The notes under the pieces were generated by a model. It searched no databases. It had not been told where the DNA came from and saw nothing but the letters and a program-made list of their open reading frames with translations. Shown here piece by piece: positions 16,659 through 29,649 of a DNA stretch of 64,000 nt (position 1 is the stretch's first letter; every line of letters starts with the position of its first letter). Both the position numbers and the translations under genes were made by a program. The stretch is from Acidimicrobiales bacterium (GTDB taxonomy: Bacteria; Actinomycetota; Acidimicrobiia; Acidimicrobiales; UBA8190), in NCBI GenBank assembly GCA_050011815.1, contig JBEKIJ010000012.1:18974-82973 (forward strand). The letters run 5' to 3'.

Positions 16659-18509
16659 TCAGCCGAAGGTGAAGTCGTAGGCGTCCACTCCGGGTGAGAC
16701 GTCGAGCACGATGGTGTCCGACTCGTATTCCGACGACGACACCAGCGTGTAGAGCCGGGGGATGCCCGACACGTCGAAGGTCTGGGTGTGCGATCCGACC
16801 GTGGCCTTGACGGTGCCCGTCCCCCCGAGGACCAGGTACACGTCGTTGGCCTGGAAGGCGAGCTCGATGCGGGCGTCGGCGCCGGCGGTGATCTTCTCCG
16901 GTCCCACCGTCCACGTGCCGGAGAAGGCCAGGTAGTCGGAGGGGAGCGAGCCGGGGAACTTGTAGACGGCGGGTTGGTTCTCGGAGATGGTGGTGCCGTC
17001 GTAGTTGGGCAGCCCGTACTTGTAGCCCAGGTAGGACTCCGGCGTCTGCTCACTCGTCGGCGTCTTGTCGGGGACGTCGGTGCGCCCCGGGAGCACCACC
17101 TTCGGGTTGGCATCGGTCAGGAGTGTGCGGATGAGCGACTCGGTGACGCCGTAGTCCCCCTCGCCGAACTCGGCGTGGCGGACCTGACCGGTGGCGTCGA
17201 TCAGGTACTCGGCCGGCCACGACTCGTTCTGGTAGGCATCCCAGGTCTTGTAGTTGTTGTCGATGGCGACGGGGTACACCACGCCGAGCTGTTTGGCAGC
17301 TTGGGAGACGTTCGACACGACGTGCTCGAAGGCGAACTCCGGGGTGTGGACACCCACGACCTCGAACCCGTCCTTGTGATACCTCGAGTACCAGGACTCG
17401 ACATGGGGCAGCGACCGTTGGCAGTTGATGCACGAGTACGTCCAGAAGTCGACCAGGAGCACCTTGCCCTTGAGCGACGCCAGCGACAGGGGCCGATCAC
17501 CGGGCGTGTTGAGCCAGGCCGCGATGCCCTGGAAGTTCGGGGCGGCGCCGCAGTCCTCGAGCGAGGACAGGCCCGGCGCGCAGCTGCCCAGCTTTCCCGT
17601 CTTCTTCTCTTGCTTGATCGACGCCAACTCTCTCTTGGCATAGGAACCACCTTCGACGTGGTTCTGGAGGATGGTCGTGTACCCGGGCACGACGCGTTGC
17701 AGGCCGTTGGTGACATTGAAGGCGATGAGCAACGTCATGGCCAGGAGCACCACGCCGCCGATCTGTCTGGCCCGCGCCGCATGGGCCCGGAAGCCCGAGA
17801 CCCGTTCGGCCACGCGCTGGCCCGCCAGCGCGAACACGAGCAAGGGCACCGAGGCCCCCAGGGCGAAGTCGATGGTGAGCACAACCGAGGCCAGGCCGAC
17901 GCGGTGGTTGGCGCTCACCACGGAGATGGCGGTCAGCACCGGGCCCGCGCACGGCACGAAGAGGGCGCCGAGTCCGAGCCCGAGGACGAACCCGCCGGCG
18001 TTCCCGTTGGGTTGGCGCTGGGCCGCCCGGGCGAAGGGCCGCTCGAGGAGGTGCCCGAGCGGGGGGACGATGAGCCCGGCCGCCACCACGCCGAGGATGA
18101 CGAGCCCGGCGTCGCGCAGGAAGTCCTGAGGCAGCCCGAGGGCGCTCAGCAGGGAGGACCCGACCAGGGTGACGATGCTGAAGCTGACGACGAGCCCGGC
18201 CACCACCGCGTAGGCGCGGTAACTGCGGGCCCGGCCCTCGAGCAGCGACCGGGTCCGGACGGTGGTCGACCGCGTGGGGCGCACCGCCACCCGGAGGGTG
18301 TCGCCCGAGCCTCTCGTCCCTGCCGGCACGCGCGTGCGGGTCGGTCGAGATTCGGCTCCGGGCTCTCCGCTTGCGGTGTCGGTCTCGGCGTCGTCTGTCG
18401 TCGGCACCGTCGCCCCGGCCACAAGGACCACGGGGAGGACCGGCAAGATGCACGGGGAGATGCCCGCGATCATCCCCGCGACGAATCCGATGCCATACAG
18501 CAGGAGCAC
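16659..18509 (-). CDS. dipZ: Cytochrome c-type biogenesis protein DipZ (CcdA membrane domain, thioredoxin-like domain and C-terminal domain)
   Basis: The N-terminal CcdA motif (AGISPCILPV) and 6-8 TM segments are followed by a TlpA/ResA-like thioredoxin domain with a WTYSCINC motif and a ~200-aa C-terminal domain. This matches the mycobacterial DipZ architecture. Confidence 0.8.
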   Translation of the reverse strand: MLLLYGIGFVAGMIAGISPCILPVLPVVLVAGATVPTTDDAETDTASGEPGAESRPTRTRVPAGTRGSGDTLRVAVRPTRSTTVRTRSLLEGRARSYRAYAVVAGLVVSFSIVTLVGSSLLSALGLPQDFLRDAGLVILGVVAAGLIVPPLGHLLERPFARAAQRQPNGNAGGFVLGLGLGALFVPCAGPVLTAISVVSANHRVGLASVVLTIDFALGASVPLLVFALAGQRVAERVSGFRAHAARARQIGGVVLLAMTLLIAFNVTNGLQRVVPGYTTILQNHVEGGSYAKRELASIKQEKKTGKLGSCAPGLSSLEDCGAAPNFQGIAAWLNTPGDRPLSLASLKGKVLLVDFWTYSCINCQRSLPHVESWYSRYHKDGFEVVGVHTPEFAFEHVVSNVSQAAKQLGVVYPVAIDNNYKTWDAYQNESWPAEYLIDATGQVRHAEFGEGDYGVTESLIRTLLTDANPKVVLPGRTDVPDKTPTSEQTPESYLGYKYGLPNYDGTTISENQPAVYKFPGSLPSDYLAFSGTWTVGPEKITAGADARIELAFQANDVYLVLGGTGTVKATVGSHTQTFDVSGIPRLYTLVSSSEYESDTIVLDVSPGVDAYDFTFG

Positions 18510-18629: not shown

Positions 18630-20150
18630 TCAGCTCCCGGGGACCGCCCACCGCAGTGACCGCTCGACGGCGTGGCGCCAGCCCTCATAGGCGCGATCGG
18701 CCGCCACCTCCGTGACCTGAGCCTCGAACCGGGCGTCGAGGGACCAGATCGACTCGAGGTCGCCCACCGTCTCCCACACGCCTTCGGCCACTCCCGCCAG
18801 CGTGGCGGCACCCAGGGCGGTGGTCTCGGTGGTGGTGGGACGGGCGACGGGCACGCGCAACTGGTCGGCTTGGTTCTGCAACAGGAGGTCGAGGACGGCC
18901 GCACCGCCGTCGACGCGCAAGGCGGCGAGCTCCGCCCCGGCCTTCTTCATGGCGTCGACCACGTCGCGCACCTGGTACGCCATGGCCTCGATCACGGCCC
19001 GGGCGATGTGGGCGGCTCCCACACCCCGGGTGAGACCGGTGATCGTCCCGCGCGCGTAGGGGTCCCACCACGGGCTGCCGAGCCCGGTGAAGGCGGGCAC
19101 CACGAAGACCCCCTCGCTGTCGTCGACCTGCTCGGCCAGCGGTCCGATGCCGGCCGCCTCCTCGATGAGGCCGAGCCCGTCGCGGAGCCACTGGATCGCC
19201 GCGCCCGTGACGAACACCGCGCCCTCGAGCGCGTAGGCCACCGGCGACGAGCCGCCGTGCTCGCCGAGGTCCCACGCCACCGTGGTGAGGAGGCCCTCGG
19301 AAGGCGGCGGGCACTCCTCACCGACGTTCAGCAGCACGAAGCTCCCCGTCCCATAGGTCACCTTGGCCATACCCGGTGACACACAGGCCTGGCCGAAGAG
19401 GGCGGCCTGCTGATCCCCGGCCACCCCGCTCACGGGCACACCGGCGATGGCGGGCGCCTGGTCGCCGAGCACTCCCCGCACCACACCGAACCGCCCGCAC
19501 GAGGGCCGCACCTCGGGGAGCGCGGCCCGGGGCACGCCCAAGATGTGACACAGCTCGTCGGACCAGCACCGCTCCCGGATGTCATAGAGCAAGGTGCGCG
19601 AGGCGTTGGTGGCATCGGTGACGACCGCCCCGCCGTCGGTGGCACCGGTGAGGTTCCAGATCAACCAGGCGTCGACGGTCCCGAGCACCAGGTCGTCGGT
19701 GACCTTCACCCCCCCGGGGCCGAGCAGCCACTCCATCTTGGTGCCCGAGAAGTACGGGTCGAGGACCAGGCCGGTGCGGGCGCGCACCACGGGAAGATGG
19801 CCCTCGGCGCGCAGCTGGTCGCATCGCTCGGCGGTGCGCCGGTCCTGCCACACGATGGCCCGGTGCAGCGGCTTCCCCGTGGCCCGGTCCCAGGCGACCA
19901 CGGTCTCTCGCTGGTTGGTGATGCCGATGGCCGCCACCGCGTGGCCCGCGGCGTGGCGGCGCCCGGCCACCTCGGCCACCGTGGTCACCACCGAGTCCCA
20001 GATCTCGGCCGGATCGTGCTCGACCCATCCTGGGCGGGGGTAGTACTGGGCGAGCTCGCGGTATGAGACGTCGATGACGGCCCCGGTCTCGTCGACGGCG
20101 AGGGCCCGGACGCCGGTCGTCCCCGCATCGATGGCGATCACGCAGGCCAC
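18630..20150 (-). CDS. glpK: Glycerol kinase
   Basis: A 506-aa version starting at the GTG of VACVIAIDAGTTG. FGGY-family signatures run throughout (WDRATGKP, GTSCF-like, VDGG). The 605-aa ORF includes an implausible N-terminal extension. Confidence 0.85.
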   Translation of the reverse strand: MACVIAIDAGTTGVRALAVDETGAVIDVSYRELAQYYPRPGWVEHDPAEIWDSVVTTVAEVAGRRHAAGHAVAAIGITNQRETVVAWDRATGKPLHRAIVWQDRRTAERCDQLRAEGHLPVVRARTGLVLDPYFSGTKMEWLLGPGGVKVTDDLVLGTVDAWLIWNLTGATDGGAVVTDATNASRTLLYDIRERCWSDELCHILGVPRAALPEVRPSCGRFGVVRGVLGDQAPAIAGVPVSGVAGDQQAALFGQACVSPGMAKVTYGTGSFVLLNVGEECPPPSEGLLTTVAWDLGEHGGSSPVAYALEGAVFVTGAAIQWLRDGLGLIEEAAGIGPLAEQVDDSEGVFVVPAFTGLGSPWWDPYARGTITGLTRGVGAAHIARAVIEAMAYQVRDVVDAMKKAGAELAALRVDGGAAVLDLLLQNQADQLRVPVARPTTTETTALGAATLAGVAEGVWETVGDLESIWSLDARFEAQVTEVAADRAYEGWRHAVERSLRWAVPGS

Positions 20151-20288
20151 GGTCGGGGACCCTATCCGGACCCCCAGGCACGACCCGGTGGGGCTCGACC
20201 CGCCCTCGCCGCGGGCCCCGGGTGCAAACCTTCGCGAACGGGTCGCGACCAGGGCCGACGCCGGACCGATCCCGTTGACACCTTCGTA

Positions 20289-20355
20289 ACTACAGTGCTG
20301 TAATGGCCCCTGCATCTGGTAGGCCCCACAGGGGAGACCACAACATCTTGTGGTC
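20289..20355. promoter_or_regulatory. Two palindromes resembling NrdR boxes upstream of nrdJ, in the glpK-nrdJ divergent region
   Basis: The two sites are TACAG-tg-CTGTA (20291-20302) and ACCACAAcatcTTGTGGT (20338-20355). The second has perfect 8-bp arms and resembles the NrdR consensus acaCwAtATaTwGtgt. They lie 85-150 bp upstream of the nrdJ ATG. Confidence 0.35.
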
Positions 20356-20440
20356 TGGGGGGGACGACGGGCCGGGGGGCCCTGTTCCTCTCCCGGGGGC
20401 CCACACCTACGCTGGGAACCAAGGAAAGGGACCAACGAAC

Positions 20441-23400
20441 ATGGCAATCGCTCCGCAGCGGACCGCTATCGGCATTCGGCGGTACTTCACCACCGAAGGG
20501 GTCCACCCCTACGACGAGCTCGCATGGGACCGGCGCGATTCGCGCATCACCGACTACCGCGACGGCAGCATCGCCTTCGAGCAGCTCGAGGTCGAGGTGC
20601 CTGTCACCTGGAGCCTCAACGCCACCAACATCCTGGCCCAGAAGTACTTCCGGGGGACCCCCGGCACCGCCGAGCGCGAGACCTCGTTGAAGCAGGTGGC
20701 CGACCGGGTGGTGGACACCATCACCGCCTGGGGCATCAAGGACGGCTACTTCGAGGACGACGCCGAGGCGCAGACCTTCAGCGACGAGCTCAAGCACATC
20801 ATCGTGAACCAGCGGGCCGCATTCAACTCCCCGGTGTGGTTCAACATCGGTGTGAAAGGTGTCCCGCAGCAGGCCAGCGCGTGTTTCATCCTTGCCGTCG
20901 ACGACTCGATGGACTCGATCCTCAACTGGTACCGGGAAGAAGGCATCATCTTCAAGGGTGGTTCGGGCGCCGGCGTGAACCTGTCGAGCATCCGCGCCTC
21001 GGTCGAACGGCTCCAAGGCGGCGGTACCGCTTCGGGCCCGGTGTCGTTCATGCGCGGAGCCGACGCCTCGGCGGGGACGATCAAGTCCGGTGGCAAGACC
21101 CGCCGGGCCGCCAAGATGGTCATCCTCAACGACGACCACCCCGACATCGAGGACTTCATCTGGTGCAAGGCCCTCGAGGAGCGCAAGGCGCGGGTCCTTC
21201 GCGACAGCGGGTTCGACATGGACCTCGACGGATCCGACTCGTTCTCCATCCAGTACCAGAACGCCAACAACTCGGTGCGCGTGACCGACGAGTTCATGCA
21301 GGCCGTCCTCGACGACGCCGACTGGGCCCTCACGGCCCGCACCGACGGCTCGGCGGTCCGTATCGTCAAGGCTCGAGACCTGTTCCGCCAGATCGCCCAC
21401 GCCGCCTGGGAATGCGCCGACCCCGGCATGCAGTTCGACACGACCATCAATCGCTGGCACACGGCCCCCAACGCCGGCCGGATCAACGGCAGTAACCCTT
21501 GCTGCTTCGTGGGTGAGACAGAGGTCGTAACAGCCGATGGTCGGCTTTCTATCGCCGAACTGGCCCTCCGTTGTGAGCTGGGTGAGGACGCGCCGAACGT
21601 CGTCGCCTTCGATCTCACCAAGAGTGAGCTGGTCATGCCCGAGATGGTCAAGGCTTGGGTTGCGGGATACACGTCAGACCTCGTAGAGGTCACCACTGAC
21701 CGGGGTCGCTTGCGCTGTACGCCTGAGCATCCTTTCCTGACCATGACAGGCGAGTTTGTGCACGCACAGTCACTCGTTCCTGGAACGAGGCTTCACGGCC
21801 TTGAGGGTACTGAGCGGATCGTGTCCGTAGGCAGGCTCCGTTTGGAACAAGAAGTCCCCGTATACGACCTGGAGGTGGCGGGGGTTCACAACTTCGCCGT
21901 TGCGACCAGTGACTCCACCGGAGTCATCGTCCACAACAGCGAGTACATGCACATCGACAACAGCGCCTGCAACCTGGCCTCGATCAACCTGCTCAAGTAC
22001 CTCCGCGAGGACGACAGCTTCGACGCCGAGAGCTTCAACGCCACGGTGGACGTCGTGTTCACGGCGCAGGAGATCCTGGTCGGCAACGCCGACTACCCGA
22101 CCGAGAAGATCGCCGAGAACTCGCGCCGGTACCGTGAGCTCGGCCTCGGATACGCGAACCTGGGTGCCCTCCTCATGGCCCAGGGCCTGCCCTATGACTC
22201 CGACGAGGGTCGGGCCTGGGCCGCGTCGATCACGGCCCTCATGACGGGCCACGCCTACGCCGTGTCCGCTCGGACGGCGTCGCGCATGGGCCCCTTCGCC
22301 GGCTTCCACGCCGATCGCGAGGCGATGCTCAACGTGCTGCAGATGCACCGCGCCGAGGTCGCCAAGATCGACGAGGAGCTCGTTCCCATGGATCTGCTCT
22401 CCGCCGCTCAGGAAGCGTGGGACGATGCCGTCGAGCTCGGAGAGCAGTTCGGCGTGCGCAACTCCCAGGCCAGCGTCCTCGCCCCGACAGGAACCATCGC
22501 CCTGATGCTCGACTGTGACACCACCGGTGTCGAGCCCGACCTCGGCCTCGTGAAGACGAAGAAGCTCGTCGGTGGTGGGACCATGTCCATCGTCAACCAG
22601 ACGGTGCCCCGTGCCCTGGCGAGGCTCGGCTACATGCCCGAGCAGGTCGACGACATCATCTCCTACATCGACGAGCACAAGTCGATCGTGGGTGCCCCGC
22701 ACCTGGCGAGCGAGCACATGGCCGTGTTCGCCTGCTCGATGGGCGACAACACGATCCATTACACGGGGCACGTCCGCATGATGGGTGCCGTCCAACCGTT
22801 CATCAGCGGCGCCATCAGCAAGTGCGTCGTGGGTGACACCCTGCTTGCCACTACCGACGGGCTCATCCGTATCGGTGGCCTGCACCAGGGCGAGAGTCCC
22901 GACAGCTTCCGCGACGAGATCCTCGCCGTGGCGTCGATCGGTGGCATCCACAAGACCGACGCCTTCTACTACGGCGGTGTCCGCCCGGTGCGTCGGGTGG
23001 TGCTCCGTTCCGGCCACGCCGTCACCGGAACCCCGAACCACCGGGTGCTGACCGCGGGGGCGACGGGCCTCGACTGGAAGCGTCTCGACCAGGTCGAGCC
23101 GGGCGATTACGTGGCCTCGAAGTACGGGGACGAGTTGTGGTCGGAACTTCCCGCCCGTTTCGACGACTTCACGCCGACTCGCTCCTACGGCTCCCAGAAG
23201 ACGGTCCGGATCCCCGACGAGATGACGGACCCGCTGGCGTTCCTGCTCGGCGCCTACGCATCCGAGGGCCATACCTCGCGTTCGACGTGGACGATAGTCA
23301 TCACGAACTCCGAGGACGCCGTCCTGGAGGAGATCGCTGAGGCCGCTCGCGTGTGCTTCGACGTCGAAGCCAAGATCCGCCGTCCCGCGGACCGTTGCCC

Positions 23401-25081
23401 GAGCGTTGAGATCTCCTCGAAGACGATCGTCGAGTTCTTCGAGTACCTGGGATGCGGCGCACGGGCTTCGGCCAAGCGGATCCCCGATGCGGTGCTTCGT
23501 TCCCCCCGGGAGCTCGTGCTCTCGTTCCTCCAGGGTCTCGCCCTCGACGCCTACACCAGTGACGCCACGACGACGAAATGGGCGATCTGCCTCGACGCGC
23601 CCGCGCTCCTCGATGACCTGCAGGCGGTCCTGACCAACCTGGGCGTGGTGCACGGCCGGATCAGCAAGTCCAACAAGCTCAACGGCAAGACCTACGACGA
23701 GGTCTATGCCGCGGGTGTCCACGCCAAGAAGATGGTCGAGCTCGCCCCCTTCCTCGAGGCCCACAAGTCGGCAGCCGCCGCCCGCATGGTGGCCGGCATC
23801 ACGGAGACGCATCACAACACGGCTGACGTGGTGCCGGGGATCACGCCGGGCGAGCTCTATGCGCTCGTTCCCTACCGACGTCGCAACGAGCTCGGCGTCC
23901 TTCTCCGGACCGAGTTCAGCTTCCTGGCCGATCGTCGCACCAGGTTCGTGAGCCGGGAGACGGTCGCACGGGTGGCTCGCATCGAAGGCGTCACCCTCCC
24001 CGAATGGCTGGGCCAGGTCCTCGACGACAACCTTCACTTCAGCCCTGTGGCATCGGTGGACGATGCCGGTGCGCGCGAGGTATTCGACGTGTCGGTGCCA
24101 TACACGCATGCCTTCGTCGCCAACGGGATCGTCAACCACAACACGGTGAACCTGCCCGAGGACGTCACCGTCGAGGACATCGAGCAGCTGCACCTCGACG
24201 CCTGGCGCCTGGGGATCAAGGCCGTCGCCATCTATCGCGACAACTGCAAGGTGGGACAGCCCCTTTCCACCACCAAGAAGGCCGGCGTGGGTGAGGGTGG
24301 CGACTTCGCCCCGCCCGGATCTGATGCCGAAGCCCGTGACCGCGCCGCCGCGGCCCGGATCTCCGAGCTCGAGGCGGCCCTCGCCCACGAGCAGGGCCGG
24401 GCCCACGACACGGTGGTGGTGGGAGCGGTGCGCGAGCGCCTGCCCCGGCGTCGCAAGTCCAGCACCTTCGCTTTCCGAGTGGCCGACTGCGAGGGGTACG
24501 TGACCGTTGGGGAGTACGACGACGGTCGGCCCGGTGAGGTGTTCATGAAGGTCTCCAAGCAGGGCTCCACCCTGGCGGGGATCATGGACGCCTTCTCGAT
24601 CTCGGTCAGCCTGGGTCTGCAGCACGGGGTGCCGCTGGCCACTTATGTCCGCAAGTACTCGAACATGCGTTTCGAGCCCGCGGGGATCACCGATGACCCC
24701 GAACTCCGCATCGCCACCAGCCTGTTGGACTACATCTTCCGCCGGCTGGCGGTGGACTACCTGCCGCTCAGCGAGCGCGAGGAGCTCGGTGTGTTGTCGA
24801 CAGTGGAGCGGATGCAGCCGACCCTGCCCGGTGTGGAAGAAGCCGCCACGCCTGAACAGGACCTCGTCGAGGACTCGGGGATCAGCTCGGTGCCGCCGAC
24901 GGGACGCAGCGACCGGACCTCGGCGGTGTACCGCACGTCGTCACCGTCTACCTCCGGCTCGGCGACGGCACGGGCCGAGCAGAGCAACGCACCCCTGTGT
25001 TACCAGTGCGGGATGGTCATGCAGCGAGCAGGGTCCTGCTACCTGTGCACGAGCTGCGGGACGACGAGCGGCTGTTCGTAG
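20441..25081 (+). CDS. nrdJ: Vitamin B12-dependent (class II) ribonucleotide reductase interrupted by two in-frame inteins
   Basis: RBS AAGGAAAGG 8 bp upstream. Has the NrdJ N-terminal region, the active-site NPC motif, the AISK-TVNLPED region and a C-terminal CxxC...CxxC zinc ribbon. Two insertions are each bounded by an N-terminal Cys and a terminal HN followed by Ser or Thr. Confidence 0.9.
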   Translation: MAIAPQRTAIGIRRYFTTEGVHPYDELAWDRRDSRITDYRDGSIAFEQLEVEVPVTWSLNATNILAQKYFRGTPGTAERETSLKQVADRVVDTITAWGIKDGYFEDDAEAQTFSDELKHIIVNQRAAFNSPVWFNIGVKGVPQQASACFILAVDDSMDSILNWYREEGIIFKGGSGAGVNLSSIRASVERLQGGGTASGPVSFMRGADASAGTIKSGGKTRRAAKMVILNDDHPDIEDFIWCKALEERKARVLRDSGFDMDLDGSDSFSIQYQNANNSVRVTDEFMQAVLDDADWALTARTDGSAVRIVKARDLFRQIAHAAWECADPGMQFDTTINRWHTAPNAGRINGSNPCCFVGETEVVTADGRLSIAELALRCELGEDAPNVVAFDLTKSELVMPEMVKAWVAGYTSDLVEVTTDRGRLRCTPEHPFLTMTGEFVHAQSLVPGTRLHGLEGTERIVSVGRLRLEQEVPVYDLEVAGVHNFAVATSDSTGVIVHNSEYMHIDNSACNLASINLLKYLREDDSFDAESFNATVDVVFTAQEILVGNADYPTEKIAENSRRYRELGLGYANLGALLMAQGLPYDSDEGRAWAASITALMTGHAYAVSARTASRMGPFAGFHADREAMLNVLQMHRAEVAKIDEELVPMDLLSAAQEAWDDAVELGEQFGVRNSQASVLAPTGTIALMLDCDTTGVEPDLGLVKTKKLVGGGTMSIVNQTVPRALARLGYMPEQVDDIISYIDEHKSIVGAPHLASEHMAVFACSMGDNTIHYTGHVRMMGAVQPFISGAISKCVVGDTLLATTDGLIRIGGLHQGESPDSFRDEILAVASIGGIHKTDAFYYGGVRPVRRVVLRSGHAVTGTPNHRVLTAGATGLDWKRLDQVEPGDYVASKYGDELWSELPARFDDFTPTRSYGSQKTVRIPDEMTDPLAFLLGAYASEGHTSRSTWTIVITNSEDAVLEEIAEAARVCFDVEAKIRRPADRCPSVEISSKTIVEFFEYLGCGARASAKRIPDAVLRSPRELVLSFLQGLALDAYTSDATTTKWAICLDAPALLDDLQAVLTNLGVVHGRISKSNKLNGKTYDEVYAAGVHAKKMVELAPFLEAHKSAAAARMVAGITETHHNTADVVPGITPGELYALVPYRRRNELGVLLRTEFSFLADRRTRFVSRETVARVARIEGVTLPEWLGQVLDDNLHFSPVASVDDAGAREVFDVSVPYTHAFVANGIVNHNTVNLPEDVTVEDIEQLHLDAWRLGIKAVAIYRDNCKVGQPLSTTKKAGVGEGGDFAPPGSDAEARDRAAAARISELEAALAHEQGRAHDTVVVGAVRERLPRRRKSSTFAFRVADCEGYVTVGEYDDGRPGEVFMKVSKQGSTLAGIMDAFSISVSLGLQHGVPLATYVRKYSNMRFEPAGITDDPELRIATSLLDYIFRRLAVDYLPLSEREELGVLSTVERMQPTLPGVEEAATPEQDLVEDSGISSVPPTGRSDRTSAVYRTSSPSTSGSATARAEQSNAPLCYQCGMVMQRAGSCYLCTSCGTTSGCS
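21503..21937 (+). mobile_element. Mini-intein 1 (145 aa, no endonuclease domain) inserted after the catalytic NPC of NrdJ
   Basis: Starts CFVGETEVVTADG (block A) and ends GVIVHN, followed by the +1 Ser (SEYMHIDNSACNL). The extein NPC|SE junction corresponds to the conserved NPCGE active-site loop. GC content is visibly lower than in the flanking extein sequence. Confidence 0.8.
22823..24142 (+). mobile_element. Intein 2 (440 aa) with a LAGLIDADG homing endonuclease, inserted after AISK of NrdJ
   Basis: Starts CVVGDTLLATTDG and ends FVANGIVNHN, followed by the +1 Thr (TVNLPED). Two LAGLIDADG-type motifs are present (LAFLLGAYASEGH and LVLSFLQGLALDAY). Confidence 0.8.
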
Positions 25082-25116
25082 TAGGACAGGCTCGCTGGCG
25101 AGAGCACGCTTCGGAT

Positions 25117-25170
25117 GCCTACCCGGTGCCCGTGACCACGAGAGGTCATGACACCGGGTAGGCGCTTTTC
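25117..25170. terminator. Bidirectional hairpin terminator between convergent nrdJ and the repeat-protein gene
   Basis: GCCTACCCGGTG (25117-25128) and CACCGGGTAGGC (25152-25163) form perfect 12-bp arms, followed by a CGCTTTTC tract. Confidence 0.5.
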
Positions 25171-25179
25171 AACAGCCTC

Positions 25180-26343
25180 TTAGTGCGAACGGTGTCCCGA
25201 GCTGTGACCGAAGTATTCCGGCCCGTTCGTAGGTGCCCCCGACCCGAACCCGCCGTGGTTGCTCGTGGCATGACCTTTCGGCCCCGACACGTCTGGCGAC
25301 CCTCCGGCCACTGATCCTCTCGGGCTCCCGAATACGGCGTGGGGCTTGGGTGTCGTGGGTGGGGAGGGAACCACGAACACGCTGGTGGCGGTCACGGTGC
25401 CGCTCGAGATGGTGCCAAAGGCGCCCACCTGCTCACCCACGCACACGTTGACGAACGTCGGTGCGCTCACGCCGTGCTCGGAGAAGGTCGTGGTGGTGCT
25501 CACGTCGACGGTGAAGGTCGAACTGTGGAACCCGTTCAAGGTGAACGTCCCCGCCGTGGCCGCCACCCCACAGGTGCCGGTGGTGCTCGTCCCGTTGACC
25601 GAAGCCACCGTCCCGAAGGCGGCGTGGGGCTTGGGCGTCGGGGGCGGCGTCACGAACACGCTGGTGGCGCTCACGGTGCCGCTCGAGATCATGCCGAAGG
25701 CGCCCACCTTCTCACCCACGCACACGTTGACGAACGTCGGTGCGCTCACGCCCTTCTCGGAGAAGGTCGTCGTGGTGCTCACGTCGACGGTGAAGGTCGT
25801 GCTGGGGAACCCGTTCAAGGTGAACGTCCCCGCCGTGGCCGCCACCCCACAGGTGCCGGTGGTGCTCGTCCCGTTGACCGAGGCCACCGTTCCGAAGACG
25901 GCGTGGGGCTTGGGCGTCGGGGGCGTCGTCACGAATACGCTGGTGGCGCTCACCGTGCCGCTCGAGATCATGCCGACGGCACCCACCTTCTCACCCACGC
26001 AGACGTTGGCGAAGGTCGGTGTGCTCACGCCGTGCTCGGAGAAGGTCGTCGTGGTGCTCACGTCGACGGTGAAGGTCGTGCTGGGGAGCGCGTCCAAGAC
26101 GAAAGCTCCCGCGGTGGCGGCGACGCCACATGTGCCGGTGGTGCTCGTCCCGTTGACCGAGGCCACCGTTCCGAAGACGCCCGTTGGCGCGTCGCGATGA
26201 TGGTGACGGCCATGGTGGCCGCTGCCGGTCGAGAGCCCACCCGAAGCACGCAACGTCGTTGCCGACGCCGCTGCGCCGGAGAGCAGGACCACCGCCAGTG
26301 TCGCCAAAATGGCGATCTTTGCCATGCGCCATGTTCTGGACAT
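25180..26343 (-). CDS. Secreted repetitive protein: signal peptide, His-rich termini and three ~90-aa tandem repeats
   Basis: Has a signal peptide (MAKIAILATLAVVLLSGAAASA) and a His cluster (HHGRHHHRD). It contains three near-identical repeats (AVFGTVASVNGTSTTGTCGVAATAG...NVCVGEKVGA.GMISSGTVSATSVFVT.PPTPKPH), each with two Cys, and a His/Gly-rich C-terminal tail. Confidence 0.6.
   Translation of the reverse strand: MSRTWRMAKIAILATLAVVLLSGAAASATTLRASGGLSTGSGHHGRHHHRDAPTGVFGTVASVNGTSTTGTCGVAATAGAFVLDALPSTTFTVDVSTTTTFSEHGVSTPTFANVCVGEKVGAVGMISSGTVSATSVFVTTPPTPKPHAVFGTVASVNGTSTTGTCGVAATAGTFTLNGFPSTTFTVDVSTTTTFSEKGVSAPTFVNVCVGEKVGAFGMISSGTVSATSVFVTPPPTPKPHAAFGTVASVNGTSTTGTCGVAATAGTFTLNGFHSSTFTVDVSTTTTFSEHGVSAPTFVNVCVGEQVGAFGTISSGTVTATSVFVVPSPPTTPKPHAVFGSPRGSVAGGSPDVSGPKGHATSNHGGFGSGAPTNGPEYFGHSSGHRSH
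25330..26175. repeat. About 279-bp tandem DNA repeat, three copies, inside the repeat-protein gene
   Basis: Near-identical units begin at ~25327, ~25621 and ~25900 (ggcgtggggcttggg...ccgaagacg). Confidence 0.7.
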
Positions 26344-26659
26344 GAATCCCCCCTGTGTTGAGTGCAGATCGCTCGGTCCGTCGCTGGCAGGCCGAGTCGC
26401 CCGTCCCCCCGCCGATGTTCCGGTGGACGAGCCGAGCGTGTAATGGCTGTTGAGGCACCTTTGCCCGAATACGTGGTCTTGTAAACACCCTATGTGATAA
26501 TTGTGACACTCGCCGCTTAGCGTCACCGAGGCACCGACCGCGAAGAAGGGCCGTGACCAGGCAGTTCATCTGAGATGCGCGCAGCGGAGCGGGAATCCCA
26601 GGATTCAGACAACGACTCGGGGCGCGGTGGATCGCCCTACCGCAAGAGCTCCCGGAGGG

Positions 26660-27862
26660 TCACGGTTCGGCTCGGATGGGCAGGTATTCGAACCGGCGGG
26701 TGAACGGCCCCGGTGCGTAACGGCCTGCGGAGCTGTCCACGACGAAATCGGGCGCCATCCGCAGCAGTTCCTCGATGACGACCCGGCCTTCGAGCCGGGC
26801 CGCGGCGGCTCCCAGACAATGGTGCGGCCCCGAGCTGAAGGCCAAGGTACGAGCCACGGTGCGGGTGACGTCGAGGCTGCCCGCATCGGGCCCGAACTCC
26901 CGAGGGTCCCGGTTGGCCGAGGCGAACAGCAGGTGGACCTTGTGATCGGCGGGGATCCTGACCGCCGCCTCGGCGGGACCGACGGTCACGTCCGTGGTGG
27001 TGGTGCGCGACAGCCCCTGGACAGGGGAGAGGAACCGCAAGAGCTCCTCCACAGCCCCGGCGACGAGTCCCCCGTCGGCGGAGAGGAGTCGACGTTGGTC
27101 AGGGTGTTCGCTCAGGAGGGCGGCGGTTCCCCCGATCAGTCCCGCCGCGGTGTCGTTGCCGCCGGCGATCATGACGAAGCAGAACCCCAGGATCTCTTCG
27201 AGGCTCACCGGACGTCCGTCGATCTCGGACTCGAGGAGCACCGAGATCATGTCGGGGCAGGAGTGCCCCTTCTTGGTTCCCGCCAGGTCGGTGAAGTACC
27301 CGTAGAGCTCTCCCACGGCCCGGCCGGCGGAGAGCACGTTCCCGCTGGCGTTGGCCTGGACGATGGCACTGCTCCAGGTGCCGAACGTGGACCGGTCGCT
27401 TTCGGGGACACCGAGGTAGTCGGCCACGACGAACGAGGGGACCGGTGTGGCGACTTCGGAGACGAAGTCGGCCTCTCCCATCTCGACGATGCGTTCGATG
27501 CACGACCTCGTGAACCGACGCAGGGAGTCCTCGCGCTCGGCCACGGCCCGCGGCGTGAACATGGCGTTGACCAATCGGCGGTAGAGGGTGTGGCGGGGCC
27601 GGTCCATCATGACCAAGGTGGGCATGAGCCCGAGCTTGGCGATCTCGTCCTCTTCGAAGGTCAGGCCCTGCGCCGAGGAGAAGGTCCCGGTGTCACAGGC
27701 CGCTGCCATCACATCCGCAAAACGCGACAGGACCCAGAATCCTCGCTTCTCGACGTGATGGACCGGGTCCTCGTCGCGCAGGCGCTCGTAGGTGGGGTAG
27801 GGGTCGCGCCACAGGTCGGGGTCGAGGGGGTCGTAGGCGAGGGTTCCGGCAGCGGTGGTCAT
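26660..27862 (-). CDS. Cytochrome P450
   Basis: 401 aa with RBS AAGGAGA 7 bp upstream. Has the heme-binding FSSGPHHCLGAAAA loop, an EELLR (ExxR) motif and an AGGNDT I-helix. Confidence 0.85.
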   Translation of the reverse strand: MTTAAGTLAYDPLDPDLWRDPYPTYERLRDEDPVHHVEKRGFWVLSRFADVMAAACDTGTFSSAQGLTFEEDEIAKLGLMPTLVMMDRPRHTLYRRLVNAMFTPRAVAEREDSLRRFTRSCIERIVEMGEADFVSEVATPVPSFVVADYLGVPESDRSTFGTWSSAIVQANASGNVLSAGRAVGELYGYFTDLAGTKKGHSCPDMISVLLESEIDGRPVSLEEILGFCFVMIAGGNDTAAGLIGGTAALLSEHPDQRRLLSADGGLVAGAVEELLRFLSPVQGLSRTTTTDVTVGPAEAAVRIPADHKVHLLFASANRDPREFGPDAGSLDVTRTVARTLAFSSGPHHCLGAAAARLEGRVVIEELLRMAPDFVVDSSAGRYAPGPFTRRFEYLPIRAEP

Positions 27863-27932
27863 CGCGGCGCTCTCCTTCGACGGGACGGACACGGCGAGAG
27901 TACTGGGACGAGCTCGGCCCGCACCGCAGCGG

Positions 27933-28823
27933 CTACCGAAGCCGACGCAAAGTTCCGGCCGGGCTCGCCGGCACGGCACCGGGATGAAGCGCCGACGCCA
28001 GGATCTCCACGCCGTCGACGAGACGGGGTCCCGGCCGTGAGAAGTACGAACTGGCATCCACGGCGAAAAACGCCTGCACTCCCGCCAGCTCGGCCCGATC
28101 CAGCAGAGGGGTGGCTTCGAGCGCGGCGGCTTCGAGGTCATACCCGCAGGGCATGAACACGACCACTTCGGGCGAGGCCGAGACGATCTGCTCCCAGGTG
28201 ACCCGGACCGACGGGGTGCCCCGGCTGGCCAGGACGGCTTCGCCTCCGGCGAGCTCGATCATCTCGGGGACCCAGTGGCCGCCGTTGAAGGGAGGATCGG
28301 ACCACTCGAGGGCGAACGTCCGGGGCTCGTCCCTCCCGGCCACCTTGGCGGCGACGAAGTCCAGCCTGGCCCGCAGGACCTCGACGAGCTCGGAGGCCAC
28401 GGACTCCGTCCCGGTGGCGGCGCCGACCTGCACGAGGCAATCCAGGACGTCGCCGAGCGAGCTCGGATCCATGGAGAGGACCTCGGCGCGACACCCCAGG
28501 AGCTCGAGGGCCTCGTTCACGTGTCCAGAGGGCACGGCGCACACCGCACACAGGTCCTGGGTGAGCACGAGATCGGGGCGAAGCTCTCGGACCGCCTCGT
28601 TGTCCAGCCGGTAGATCGGCTCACCCCCGCCGATGGAGGCGCTGACGAGGCGGTCCACCTCGGCCGGGTCCGAGGCGTCGGGAAGCGTGGAGAACGACAC
28701 CGATCGCTTGGTGCGGGCGCCAGGGGGCCAGTCGCATTCGTGGGTCACCCCCACCAGGTCGTCCTCCAGGCCCAGGGCGTAGACGATCTCGGTGGCCGAC
28801 GGCAGCAGGGAGAGGATCCGCAT
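27933..28823 (-). CDS. BtuF/TroA-like (cluster A-II) substrate-binding protein lacking a signal peptide (cobalamin-binding-protein-like)
   Basis: The MRILSLLPSATEIVYALG N-terminus and overall periplasmic-binding-protein (type III) pattern match BtuF-like proteins. There is no hydrophobic leader and no adjacent permease or ATPase. Confidence 0.6.
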   Translation of the reverse strand: MRILSLLPSATEIVYALGLEDDLVGVTHECDWPPGARTKRSVSFSTLPDASDPAEVDRLVSASIGGGEPIYRLDNEAVRELRPDLVLTQDLCAVCAVPSGHVNEALELLGCRAEVLSMDPSSLGDVLDCLVQVGAATGTESVASELVEVLRARLDFVAAKVAGRDEPRTFALEWSDPPFNGGHWVPEMIELAGGEAVLASRGTPSVRVTWEQIVSASPEVVVFMPCGYDLEAAALEATPLLDRAELAGVQAFFAVDASSYFSRPGPRLVDGVEILASALHPGAVPASPAGTLRRLR

Positions 28824-28875
28824 GGCGCGATCGTGGCCCACCCGCGCCCGTGGCGCTAGTGCGGCAGTCCGAGTG

Positions 28876-29649
28876 CTACCGGGGTCGGTGGCCGATCACG
28901 GTCACGAGGCCCACGGGAAGGGTCTCCTGACCGAACGACGCCAGGATCGAAGCGTCCACGCCGTGCCGCGCCAGGAGCGTCGGGACACGGGCCGTGTCGA
29001 CCAGGACGTTGTGGTGGGTCTCGTCGTCGCGCCGCCACGAGTCGTCGCTGTTCCTGAGAAAGGTCGTCATCTCCCGGACGAAGCGGTTGGGCGACGGGAT
29101 CGAGAATTCGGTCACGATCATCCAGCCGTCGCCCCGCCGCACCTGTGTCGGTGCCCCCTGGCGAAAGCGCCCGTACTCGACGTCGCACAGGTCGATGGCG
29201 AGAACGCCGCCGGGCCGCAGCGCTCCCGCCAGCGCCGCCAGGGCCCGGTCGACCGAATCCTCGTCGTCGAGGTAGCTCAGGACGTGACCCACCGACACGA
29301 TGGCGTCGGCGCCCGGGACAGGGTCGTCGGGGAGGCGCAGGGGTCGGATGTCCTCGGCGCCGGTCGCGTACTGCCGTGCCAACTCGAGCATGGCGTTCGA
29401 CGCGTCGGTGGCGATCACCCGGTGCCCGGCATCCACCAGGTGTTTAGTCAACAGGCCGCTGCCACATCCGATCTCGACCACGAGACCGTTGCGGTCGCGG
29501 ACCGGAGCCAAGAGCTCGAGAATCCCCGGAGCACAGGCGTCGGCGTGGAATCCGAACCCGAGATGGTGGATGCGTGCCAGGTCGTCGCGGTAATAGGGAT
29601 CGCGTGTCTCGGGCCCGTCCATGCCCTCAGTATCGCTCGTACCGGGCAC
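28876..29649 (-). CDS. Class I SAM-dependent methyltransferase
   Basis: Motif I (VVEIGCGSGLL) is followed by motif post-I (IATDAS) and motif II (PGGVLAI). Confidence 0.7.
   Translation of the reverse strand: MPGTSDTEGMDGPETRDPYYRDDLARIHHLGFGFHADACAPGILELLAPVRDRNGLVVEIGCGSGLLTKHLVDAGHRVIATDASNAMLELARQYATGAEDIRPLRLPDDPVPGADAIVSVGHVLSYLDDEDSVDRALAALAGALRPGGVLAIDLCDVEYGRFRQGAPTQVRRGDGWMIVTEFSIPSPNRFVREMTTFLRNSDDSWRRDDETHHNVLVDTARVPTLLARHGVDASILASFGQETLPVGLVTVIGHRPR

Follow-up and report, generated by a model that had tools for sequence, protein, structure and literature searches.

A predicted secreted protein of three divergent DUF5666-type OB-fold units with histidine-bearing ends from an Acidimicrobiales bacterium

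Introduction

Among exported proteins with the oligonucleotide/oligosaccharide-binding (OB) fold, the Cu/Ag chaperone CusF binds metal, and the haem chaperone CcmE uses a histidine in its flexible C-terminal tail. Histidine-rich metal-binding tails or loops are known from Hpn, HypB, UreE, the SlyD tails, the ZnuA loop and the streptococcal Pht proteins, most of them cytoplasmic. The Pfam family DUF5666 (PF18914), a domain of unknown function (DUF), is large (thousands of representative clusters) and has neither a known function nor a solved structure; the literature on it consists of incidental table listings that assign no function. In one machine-learning study, DUF5666 was one of the 20 highest-ranking Pfam features for the prediction of optimal growth pH, which is a correlative result only (PMC13255231). 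Here we describe a gene whose product we link to this family. It occupies positions 25180-26343 (minus strand) of a 64,000-nt stretch of contig JBEKIJ010000012.1 from an Acidimicrobiales bacterium (assembly GCA_050011815.1), hereafter called the window, whose DNA is ~65-75% G+C.

We are highly confident of the identity and architecture of the product. After removal of the signal peptide, the chain would run from a disordered segment with a His cluster, through three OB-fold domains of ~86 aa strung on PPTPKPH linkers, to a disordered tail of ~60 aa. The protein is a divergent, apparently disulfide-stapled and lineage-restricted variant of a known uncharacterised family, already deposited as a hypothetical protein.

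Results

Architecture of the encoded protein

The minus-strand open reading frame (ORF) 25180-26343 translates into 387 aa (ORF list and translation), which were divided as follows. Hidden Markov model (HMM) hits are given with their independent E-value (iE), and model confidence as the predicted local distance difference test (pLDDT).

25180..26343, minus strand: complete coding sequence of the predicted secreted three-unit DUF5666-type protein, stop codon at 25180-25182
26347..26354, minus strand: Shine-Dalgarno-like AGGGGGGA, 3-4 nt 5' of the ATG (from the sequence)
26260..26343, minus strand: Sec-type signal peptide, aa 1-28, MSRTWRMAKIAILATLAVVLLSGAAASA with cleavage before TT (read from the sequence)
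26179..26259, minus strand: disordered N-terminal segment of the mature protein, aa 29-55 (model pLDDT < 50 for residues 1-50)
25921..26178, minus strand: repeat unit 1, aa 56-141, with Cys72 and Cys115 (HMM iE 7.9e-33; pLDDT ~90 in the full-length model)
25900..25920, minus strand: Pro-rich linker 1, aa 142-148, PPTPKPH (sequence; confidence dips between the domains in the model)
25642..25899, minus strand: repeat unit 2, aa 149-234, with Cys165 and Cys208 (unit modelled on its own)
25621..25641, minus strand: Pro-rich linker 2, aa 235-241, PPTPKPH (sequence; model)
25363..25620, minus strand: repeat unit 3, aa 242-327, with Cys258 and Cys301 (HMM iE 9.8e-34; model)
25183..25362, minus strand: disordered Gly/Ser/Pro/His-rich C-terminal tail, aa 328-387 (model pLDDT < 50 for residues 333-387)

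In the signal peptide, a basic n-region leads into a hydrophobic core of 15 aa, which is followed by the cleavage motif A-S-A (A-x-A); the Kyte-Doolittle maximum of 2.24 falls at aa 10-28, and the full-length model places a helix at aa 4-19. Inspection of the window protein revealed no twin-arginine motif, and a regular-expression search for the lipobox [LVI][ASTVI][GAS]C was negative, the first 71 residues being free of Cys. In agreement with the original prediction, which had seen no LPXTG motif, LP.[TSA]G does not occur anywhere in the protein, and its C-terminus (...GHSSGHRSH) is polar. Domain and motif scans detected neither a sortase signal nor LysM, SLH or any other known module for wall binding. 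The lack of a detectable anchor argues against a covalently attached adhesin, and the protein is predicted to be Sec-exported and unanchored, residing in the envelope or outside the cell. The proposal of a secreted, β-rich tandem-repeat protein is thus upheld by the signal peptide and the three OB-fold units.

The full-length model (pLDDT 75, predicted template modelling score 0.42) contains three confident domains joined by weaker Pro-rich linkers, and depicts the protein as beads on a string with floppy, His-bearing ends. His clusters do flank the repeats, as had been proposed. The first, HHGRHHH (aa 43-49, nt 26197-26217), precedes unit 1, and a cluster stands at the same position in orthologs P0002-P0005, P0012, P0021, P0022 and P0066; at least three His lie within the 25 aa before unit 1 in 49 of 120 homologs. 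The C-terminal tail has 6 His in 60 aa, and its final motif, SGHRSH, is kept within the clade, where the orthologs end in SGHHSH, SGHNSH, SGHPSH or PGHHSH. At least four His are found in the C-terminal tail of 54 of the 120 homologs.

Fold of the repeat unit and the cysteine pair

The AlphaFold2 model of a single unit (unit 2) has a pLDDT of 95.3. Its strands (residues 2-8, 24-30, 34-40 with 45-48, 64-72 and 75-84) form a closed five-stranded β-barrel with a short helix (56-58) between strands 3 and 4, which is the topology of an OB fold. A Foldseek search of the unit against the PDB gave nothing significant; the CusF-Ag(I) structure 2qcp was among the weak matches (E 0.53). A profile search of PDB sequences returned only a lectin, at a non-significant E of 1.6.

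Each window unit contains exactly two Cys, as originally predicted. The same holds for 425 of the 431 units pooled from the analysed family members, while both Cys have been lost together in 4 units, and both columns are 99% Cys in the unit alignment. In all modelled units the two residues are isolated β-bridge residues (e.g. residues 72 and 115). From this co-conservation and the model geometry we strongly infer a disulfide bond between the hairpin Cys (GTCG) and the second Cys, which follows the short helix (NVCVG). Such a bond would staple a hairpin that is inserted in loop L12 to the stretch following the helix, yielding a domain suited to life outside the cell.

The other near-invariant columns of the unit are Gly or hydrophobic. 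OB topology would place the conserved polar columns (N9, D/N/E39, T44, E/D48, S/T55 and D/N58) at the barrel end that also holds the disulfide. In the alignment, His enrichment is restricted to two loop columns (~22% each). The β2-L23-β3 surface (columns 29-36) is the most variable part of the unit, and Ser plus Thr account for 34-35% of each unit.

Relationship to DUF5666

The original prediction could name no homolog, a statement now superseded by over 200 significant homologs, almost all of which come from bins of Acidimicrobiales or Acidimicrobiia, and by a link to DUF5666. Scanned against genomes, the motif [PA][TS]F[AV]NVCVG recovered 37 loci, 36 of them from metagenome-assembled genomes (MAGs) of Acidimicrobiales or Acidimicrobiaceae; peatland (SPRUCE) and bog are among the sources of these bins. 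The 37th locus, L011 (CAZLEC010000014.1), is on a 21-kb contig binned as 'Burkholderiales', and probably represents a mis-binned contig rather than horizontal transfer.

The PF18914 profile is 60 positions long and has a gathering threshold of 27 bits. Unit 2 of the window protein, scanned alone, does not match it. Homologs P0040 and P0038, which match the window protein at E 1e-87, score 45.9 and 39.3 bits, and their matches span profile positions 7-59 of 60, corresponding to the C-terminal two-thirds of the unit. Among 81 isolated units, 13 match DUF5666 on their own (best E 3e-07). An exhaustive profile search with the unit alignment (A1) yielded 2,642 representative clusters and retrieved canonical DUF5666 proteins at E 1e-29 to 1e-62; P0143, P0186, P0201, P0215 and P0192 (E 1e-36 to 1e-62) score 68-786 bits on PF18914, these distant matches including P0143 at 195.7 bits and P0186 at 785.9 bits. 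Since homologs pass the Pfam threshold and the unit profile retrieves canonical members, we assign the window unit, on the strength of these sequence comparisons, to DUF5666 as a divergent OB-fold domain. The original prediction held that a match of the unit to a family of established function would speak against it; DUF5666 has no established function, so the objection does not arise.

Other candidate relationships were rejected. Matches of the window protein to Pfam, NCBIfam or PDB sequences (EMC7, DUF6528, PqqA, xylanase) are sub-threshold noise, and the PqqA matches in homologs are spurious, being 10 residues long and below threshold. The Cys-free relatives P0093 and P0107 could not serve as a bridge to DUF5666, as they are themselves below the Pfam threshold. 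The Joint Genome Institute (JGI) names 'cyclophilin family peptidyl-prolyl cis-trans isomerase' and 'house-cleaning NTP pyrophosphatase Maf/HAM1' given to P0004, P0011 and P0018 have no domain support, precomputed Pfam assignments being empty for all three, and look like annotation errors. No additional Pfam domains were found in the longer family members.

History of the repeat array

Tandem Repeats Finder reported a single array at 25372-26179, with a period of 279 bp, 2.9 copies, 92% matches and no indels, and the unit HMM detected three copies (25921-26178, 25642-25899 and 25366-25620) and none elsewhere in the window. The tandem units are ~93 aa each, linker included. The three copies and the 279-bp period claimed originally were therefore recovered. 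The claimed DNA identity of ~95% was not: without the indel-bearing linker of the third unit, the units are about 87-94% identical, and the ungapped pairwise values are 91.4% (1 vs 2), 89.6% (2 vs 3) and 82.4% (1 vs 3). Units 1 and 2 do not differ at all in nt 1-46 or nt 91-143, and have 13 differences in nt 47-90, which encode the hairpin-to-β2/L23 surface. Gene-conversion tracts could account for this mosaic, as could localised diversification.

The number of units ranges from 2 to 6 among family members and varies even at the syntenic locus, with two in P0003 (locus L001), three in the window protein and four in P0005 (locus L003). The identities of the units were as follows.

P0003: within-protein unit identity 0.97; best unit in another protein 0.85-0.86
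P0005: within-protein unit identity 0.94-1.00; best unit in another protein 0.81-0.92
Window protein: within-protein unit identity 0.88-0.90; best unit in another protein 0.86-0.91

Other paralog clades have old, position-specific units, with identities of 0.42-0.74 within a protein versus 0.84-0.94 between orthologs. Because units in the window clade are more alike within a protein than between orthologs, expansion or homogenisation is here recent, in line with the homogenisation proposed at the outset. The three-unit array very probably arose by recent unequal recombination (duplication-deletion) or gene conversion, as judged from these identities and from the differing unit numbers of the orthologs.

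Paralogs linked to ECF sigma factors

A clade of paralogs of ~510-530 aa (P0087, P0092, P0078 and P0091) shares the Cys-stapled DUF5666 array. These proteins consist of a conserved cytoplasmic segment of ~95 aa followed by a single transmembrane helix, a stretch rich in His, three Cys-stapled units and a tail rich in His and Asp. At each of the four loci examined, the start codon of the paralog overlaps the stop codon of an extracytoplasmic function (ECF) sigma factor gene by 4 bp. The ECF-linked paralogs are located as follows.

L004, 8001-9557: ECF-linked paralog
L043, 3001-4536: ECF-linked paralog
L044, 3001-4560: ECF-linked paralog
L045, 3001-4599: ECF-linked paralog

The cytoplasmic segment carries the motif DDFP..M..FPFDD...LRDVA.LV.AARR..DEL, and further, diverse members share the N-terminal motif. 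Neither the N-terminal domain nor the ectodomain matched known anti-sigma Pfam families. The overlap with an ECF sigma gene is the classic anti-sigma arrangement, and the ectodomain would therefore sense something outside the cell; the paralog is probably an anti-sigma factor whose sensing part is the DUF5666 array.

Start codon and coding strand

NCBI MAG protein P0001 (a hypothetical protein of an Acidimicrobiales MAG) is 100% identical to the window protein and starts six codons later. The ATG at 26343 is the better start, because it is preceded by the Shine-Dalgarno-like AGGGGGGA and because the residues upstream of the shorter NCBI start are kept in homologs (MSRTWRM, MFKSWRI or MFNRWRL).

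The strand assignment was checked against the plus-strand ORF 25346-26200. The G+C content at third codon positions (GC3) is 0.86 in the minus-strand ORF vs 0.91 in the plus-strand one, and is unable to separate the strands since both ORFs share third codon positions. The minus-strand ORF also has an atypical pattern, with less G+C at first (GC1) than at second (GC2) positions, which is due to its composition (19% Thr, 14% Gly, 12% Ser and 9% Ala). In a comparison of 42 homologous loci, stops break the two long antisense frames in 34 and 39 loci (stop-free in 8 and 3), and all units are present in the sense frame of every locus. The antisense alternative was rejected because of these stops and the very confident fold of the sense product, so that, as originally supposed, the minus-strand ORF and not the plus-strand one is the real gene.

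Flanking elements and gene neighbourhood

Two candidate regulatory elements flank the gene.

26457..26506, minus strand: candidate promoter in a conserved AT-rich block (upstream sequences of the window, L001 and L003, aligned)
25117..25163, no strand assigned: GC-rich stem-loop, candidate bidirectional terminator without a U-tract (inverted repeat and fold)

The upstream block comprises a TCACA-N4-TCACA repeat (26506-26493), a -35-like TTTACA within GTGTTTACAA (26488-26479), a 17-nt spacer and a -10-like AAAGGT (26462-26457), which is conserved as nAnnnT. A strict sigma-70 consensus scan made no call on the block, for which a promoter role is plausible. The direct repeat just 5' of TTTACA could be an operator for some regulator. 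The block forms an AT-rich island in DNA of otherwise ~67% GC. An Rfam scan of 19000-29000 found no RNA family, therefore no riboswitch upstream of the gene or of nrdJ.

The gene converges with a class II ribonucleotide reductase (RNR) gene ending at 25081. The 98-bp spacer contains a perfect 12-bp inverted repeat (25117-25128 / 25152-25163) whose hairpin folds at -52.2 kcal/mol (z = -5.5; none of 200 shuffles equally stable). Comparable stems lie downstream of the orthologs in L003 and, weaker, in L001. A simple intrinsic-terminator consensus scan did not call the hairpin, which has no U-tract. The convergence with nrdJ given in the original prediction thus stands, and the shared bidirectional terminator does not go beyond a plausible candidate.

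Clustering of the flanking ORFs over the 42 loci resolved at least three separate syntenic groups, each clade-specific, with neighbour sets of cytochrome P450/RNR, ATP-binding cassette (ABC) transporter/PPK2, and acyl-CoA dehydrogenase/F420 oxidoreductase. There is no universal neighbour or conserved operon partner among these loci, and the gene is a standalone unit. At the syntenic locus it is flanked by P450, Peripla_BP_2 and methyltransferase genes on one side, and on the other by genes for an intein-containing class II RNR, an FGGY kinase and a DsbD-thioredoxin fusion.

Some of these neighbours deserve mention in their own right. The RNR (20303-25081, plus strand) is a 1592-aa class II (B12-dependent) enzyme with apparently two inteins, inserted at 21503-21937 and 22823-24142 (boundaries set by motif only). 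The first is a mini-intein of ~145 aa (CFVGETEV...VIVHN/S), and the second, of ~440 aa, has a LAGLIDADG homing-endonuclease domain (CVVGDTLL...IVNHN/T); Pfam matches are to Intein_splicing and LAGLIDADG_3, and the L001 ortholog is also intein-bearing. A 616-aa fusion of DsbD_TM, AhpC/TSA-Redoxin and Thioredoxin_10 (16659-18509, minus strand), an extracytoplasmic thiol-redox system, lies ~6.7 kb from the gene for the six-Cys secreted protein and is kept in L001 and L003. A 302-aa Peripla_BP_2 protein of the BtuF/siderophore-binding type (27933-28841, minus strand) has no obvious N-terminal signal peptide; as listed, its ORF overlaps the start of the downstream P450 ORF, and it is near the B12-dependent RNR gene.

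Discussion

In the explanation that we prefer, the flexible His-rich tails would bind divalent metals (Ni, Zn, Cu or Co), with the rigid string of OB folds as a stable scaffold or ligand platform, and the protein would function outside the cytoplasm as a metal buffer, chaperone or sensor accessory. A metal- or ligand-sensing role is favoured because 39% of close homologs (20% of wider representatives) have a His cluster, defined as at least 4 His in 10 aa, and because the ECF-linked paralog has His/Asp-rich tails. His tails are found in several clades and differ in chemistry, being of the G/S/P/H type ending in SGHxSH, of the H/G/R type, or H/D-rich. As a whole, architecture and extracytoplasmic metal role together, this explanation is quite possible; metal binding by the window protein, as read from its sequence, is put forward tentatively.

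Several observations weigh against it. The window protein has no match to PF18914 even at E <= 1, and the disulfide is inferential, resting on Cys co-conservation and model geometry. The unit alignment contains no conserved His/Met/Cys ligand set inside the OB unit. Many family members, among them the P0110 and P0007 clades, are without any His tails, so metal binding via tails cannot be the function that is conserved in the OB array itself. Over the 42 loci, metal transporters and metallochaperones are not among the conserved neighbours, and no convincing Zur, IdeR, Nur, CsoR or Fur-like box was found upstream, which is a weak negative. Finally, in acidic peat and bog, most extracellular His would carry a proton, a state unfavourable to metal coordination.

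The same acidity enters a somewhat unlikely but still serious alternative, an envelope scaffold or glycan binder. Here the OB-fold units would bind polysaccharide of the cell wall or the environment, or simply be a spacer of adjustable length that resists acid and proteases, and at bog pH the protonated His/Arg-bearing tails would be cationic tethers to anionic wall polymers or humic matter. The high Ser plus Thr content, the Pro-rich linkers and the copy number of 2-6 are typical of wall-associated spacer or adhesin proteins, the variability of columns 29-36 is that expected of a diversifying binding face, and the extracytoplasmic OB folds YobA and PilY2 are structural neighbours. Tail ends rich in Arg, His or Lys occur in several clades (e.g. 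HGRHGRHGKH, ARLRRARPQAPR and GGHNPRPGGRR), and the source habitats are acidic peat and bog. The C-terminal tail of the window protein is, however, not strongly basic, and the acidic His/Asp tails of the anti-sigma-like paralogs are unfit as a cationic tether. The scans for sortase signals, LysM, SLH and other known wall-binding modules were negative, and no glycan-processing genes are conserved nearby in the 42 loci.

An extracytoplasmic stress protein resembling BOF (YgiW/YdeI) proteins is improbable. Induced by envelope, acid or oxidative stress, it would bind damaged envelope components, and its His tails would be incidental stretches of low complexity. In favour of this, the OB-fold domain is small, secreted and devoid of catalytic residues, and the gene stands alone with its own conserved promoter-like block; an ECF sigma factor, a regulator of the envelope-stress type, is linked to the paralog, and DUF5666 is among the top growth-pH predictors, albeit only by correlation (PMC13255231). 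Yet neither the protein nor any of the 81 units matched a BOF Pfam or NCBIfam stress family, and the His clusters are too frequent (39%) and too conserved in position (the SGHxSH C-terminus and the cluster before unit 1) to be incidental. To our knowledge, BOF proteins are single-domain rather than tandem arrays.

Handling of a tetrapyrrole (haem or cobalamin) in the manner of CcmE, with the His-bearing flexible tail as ligand, is very improbable. The flexible C-terminal tail with its conserved terminal SGHxSH, and the P450, BtuF-like Peripla_BP_2 and B12-dependent RNR neighbours, would fit such a role, but this synteny is limited to closely related genomes, and the neighbours of other paralog groups differ. 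Moreover, the Peripla_BP_2 protein has no obvious signal peptide, there is no CcmE Pfam match, and the similarity is at the level of a generic OB fold, dozens of nucleic-acid-binding OB folds scoring higher.

The weakest alternative, that there is no real gene but a long open frame in GC-rich DNA or the antisense of plus-strand ORF 25346-26200, can point to the higher GC3 and 'typical' GC1 > GC2 of that ORF as against GC1 < GC2 on the minus strand, but is effectively refuted by the stops that interrupt the antisense frames in 34 and 39 of 42 loci, by the signal peptide, the 99%-conserved Cys pair, the pLDDT-95 OB fold and the Pfam-detectable family, and by the amino-acid composition that accounts for the odd GC1/GC2 pattern.

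The preferred metal role can be extended to the paralogs in a more speculative form. The Cys-stapled DUF5666 array with His-rich tails would be a hitherto unrecognised extracytoplasmic module that senses and buffers metal or pH (through His protonation) in acid-soil and peat Acidimicrobiia. The ECF-linked paralog would represent a new anti-sigma class. Secreted paralogs, the window protein among them, would serve the same ligand in soluble form, as partners, buffers or decoys whose capacity is tuned by rapid gain and loss of units. We regard this proposal as unlikely to hold in full.

Overall, the window protein is a fairly ordinary member of DUF5666 that would hold little surprise for a specialist. 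The locus does provide the family with a confident OB-fold assignment, defines a disulfide-stapled subfamily confined to uncultured peat and soil Acidimicrobiales, and offers two functional handles, the His-rich tails and the ECF-sigma-coupled paralog. The variation between two, three and four units is a neat but common case of concerted evolution of tandem domains. If metal or pH sensing is true, a widespread DUF would acquire a role, and an abundant uncultured soil lineage a new anti-sigma sensor domain; if it is false, the protein is one more secreted repeat protein of unassigned function.

Compared with known systems, the window protein differs from ECF anti-sigma factors in that it has only a cleavable signal peptide, no cytoplasmic domain or transmembrane anchor and no adjacent sigma gene, its neighbours being the P450 and RNR genes. 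It resembles His-rich metallochaperone tails by composition only, through the HHGRHHH cluster and the His-dotted Gly/Ser tail, and differs from them in that the C-terminal tail is only ~10% His. With CusF (2qcp), CcmE (2kct), YobA (4qy7), PilY2 (3tdq) and YgiW/YdeI it shares a small OB barrel of five or six strands that is exported to the envelope. These proteins are single-domain, whereas the window protein is a disulfide-stapled tandem array. There is no Pfam match to the CusF family (PF11604) and no conserved His/Met column in the unit, and both the His/Met/Trp ligands of CusF and the haem-binding motif of CcmE are absent from the conserved columns of the subfamily. Canonical DUF5666 proteins belong to the same superfamily and likewise have a signal peptide followed by domains in tandem, and their linkers or tails often contain His. 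Unlike them, the Acidimicrobiales proteins have an insertion of ~13 residues in loop L12, SVNG[TSTTGTCGVAATA]GTF, in which the first Cys lies (GTCG), and a Val-to-Cys substitution (FADVVVG to FVNVCVG) that supplies the second; canonical members lack the Cys hairpin and with it the Cys pair. The window units are thus a lineage-specific DUF5666 subfamily distinguished by a hairpin inserted in L12.

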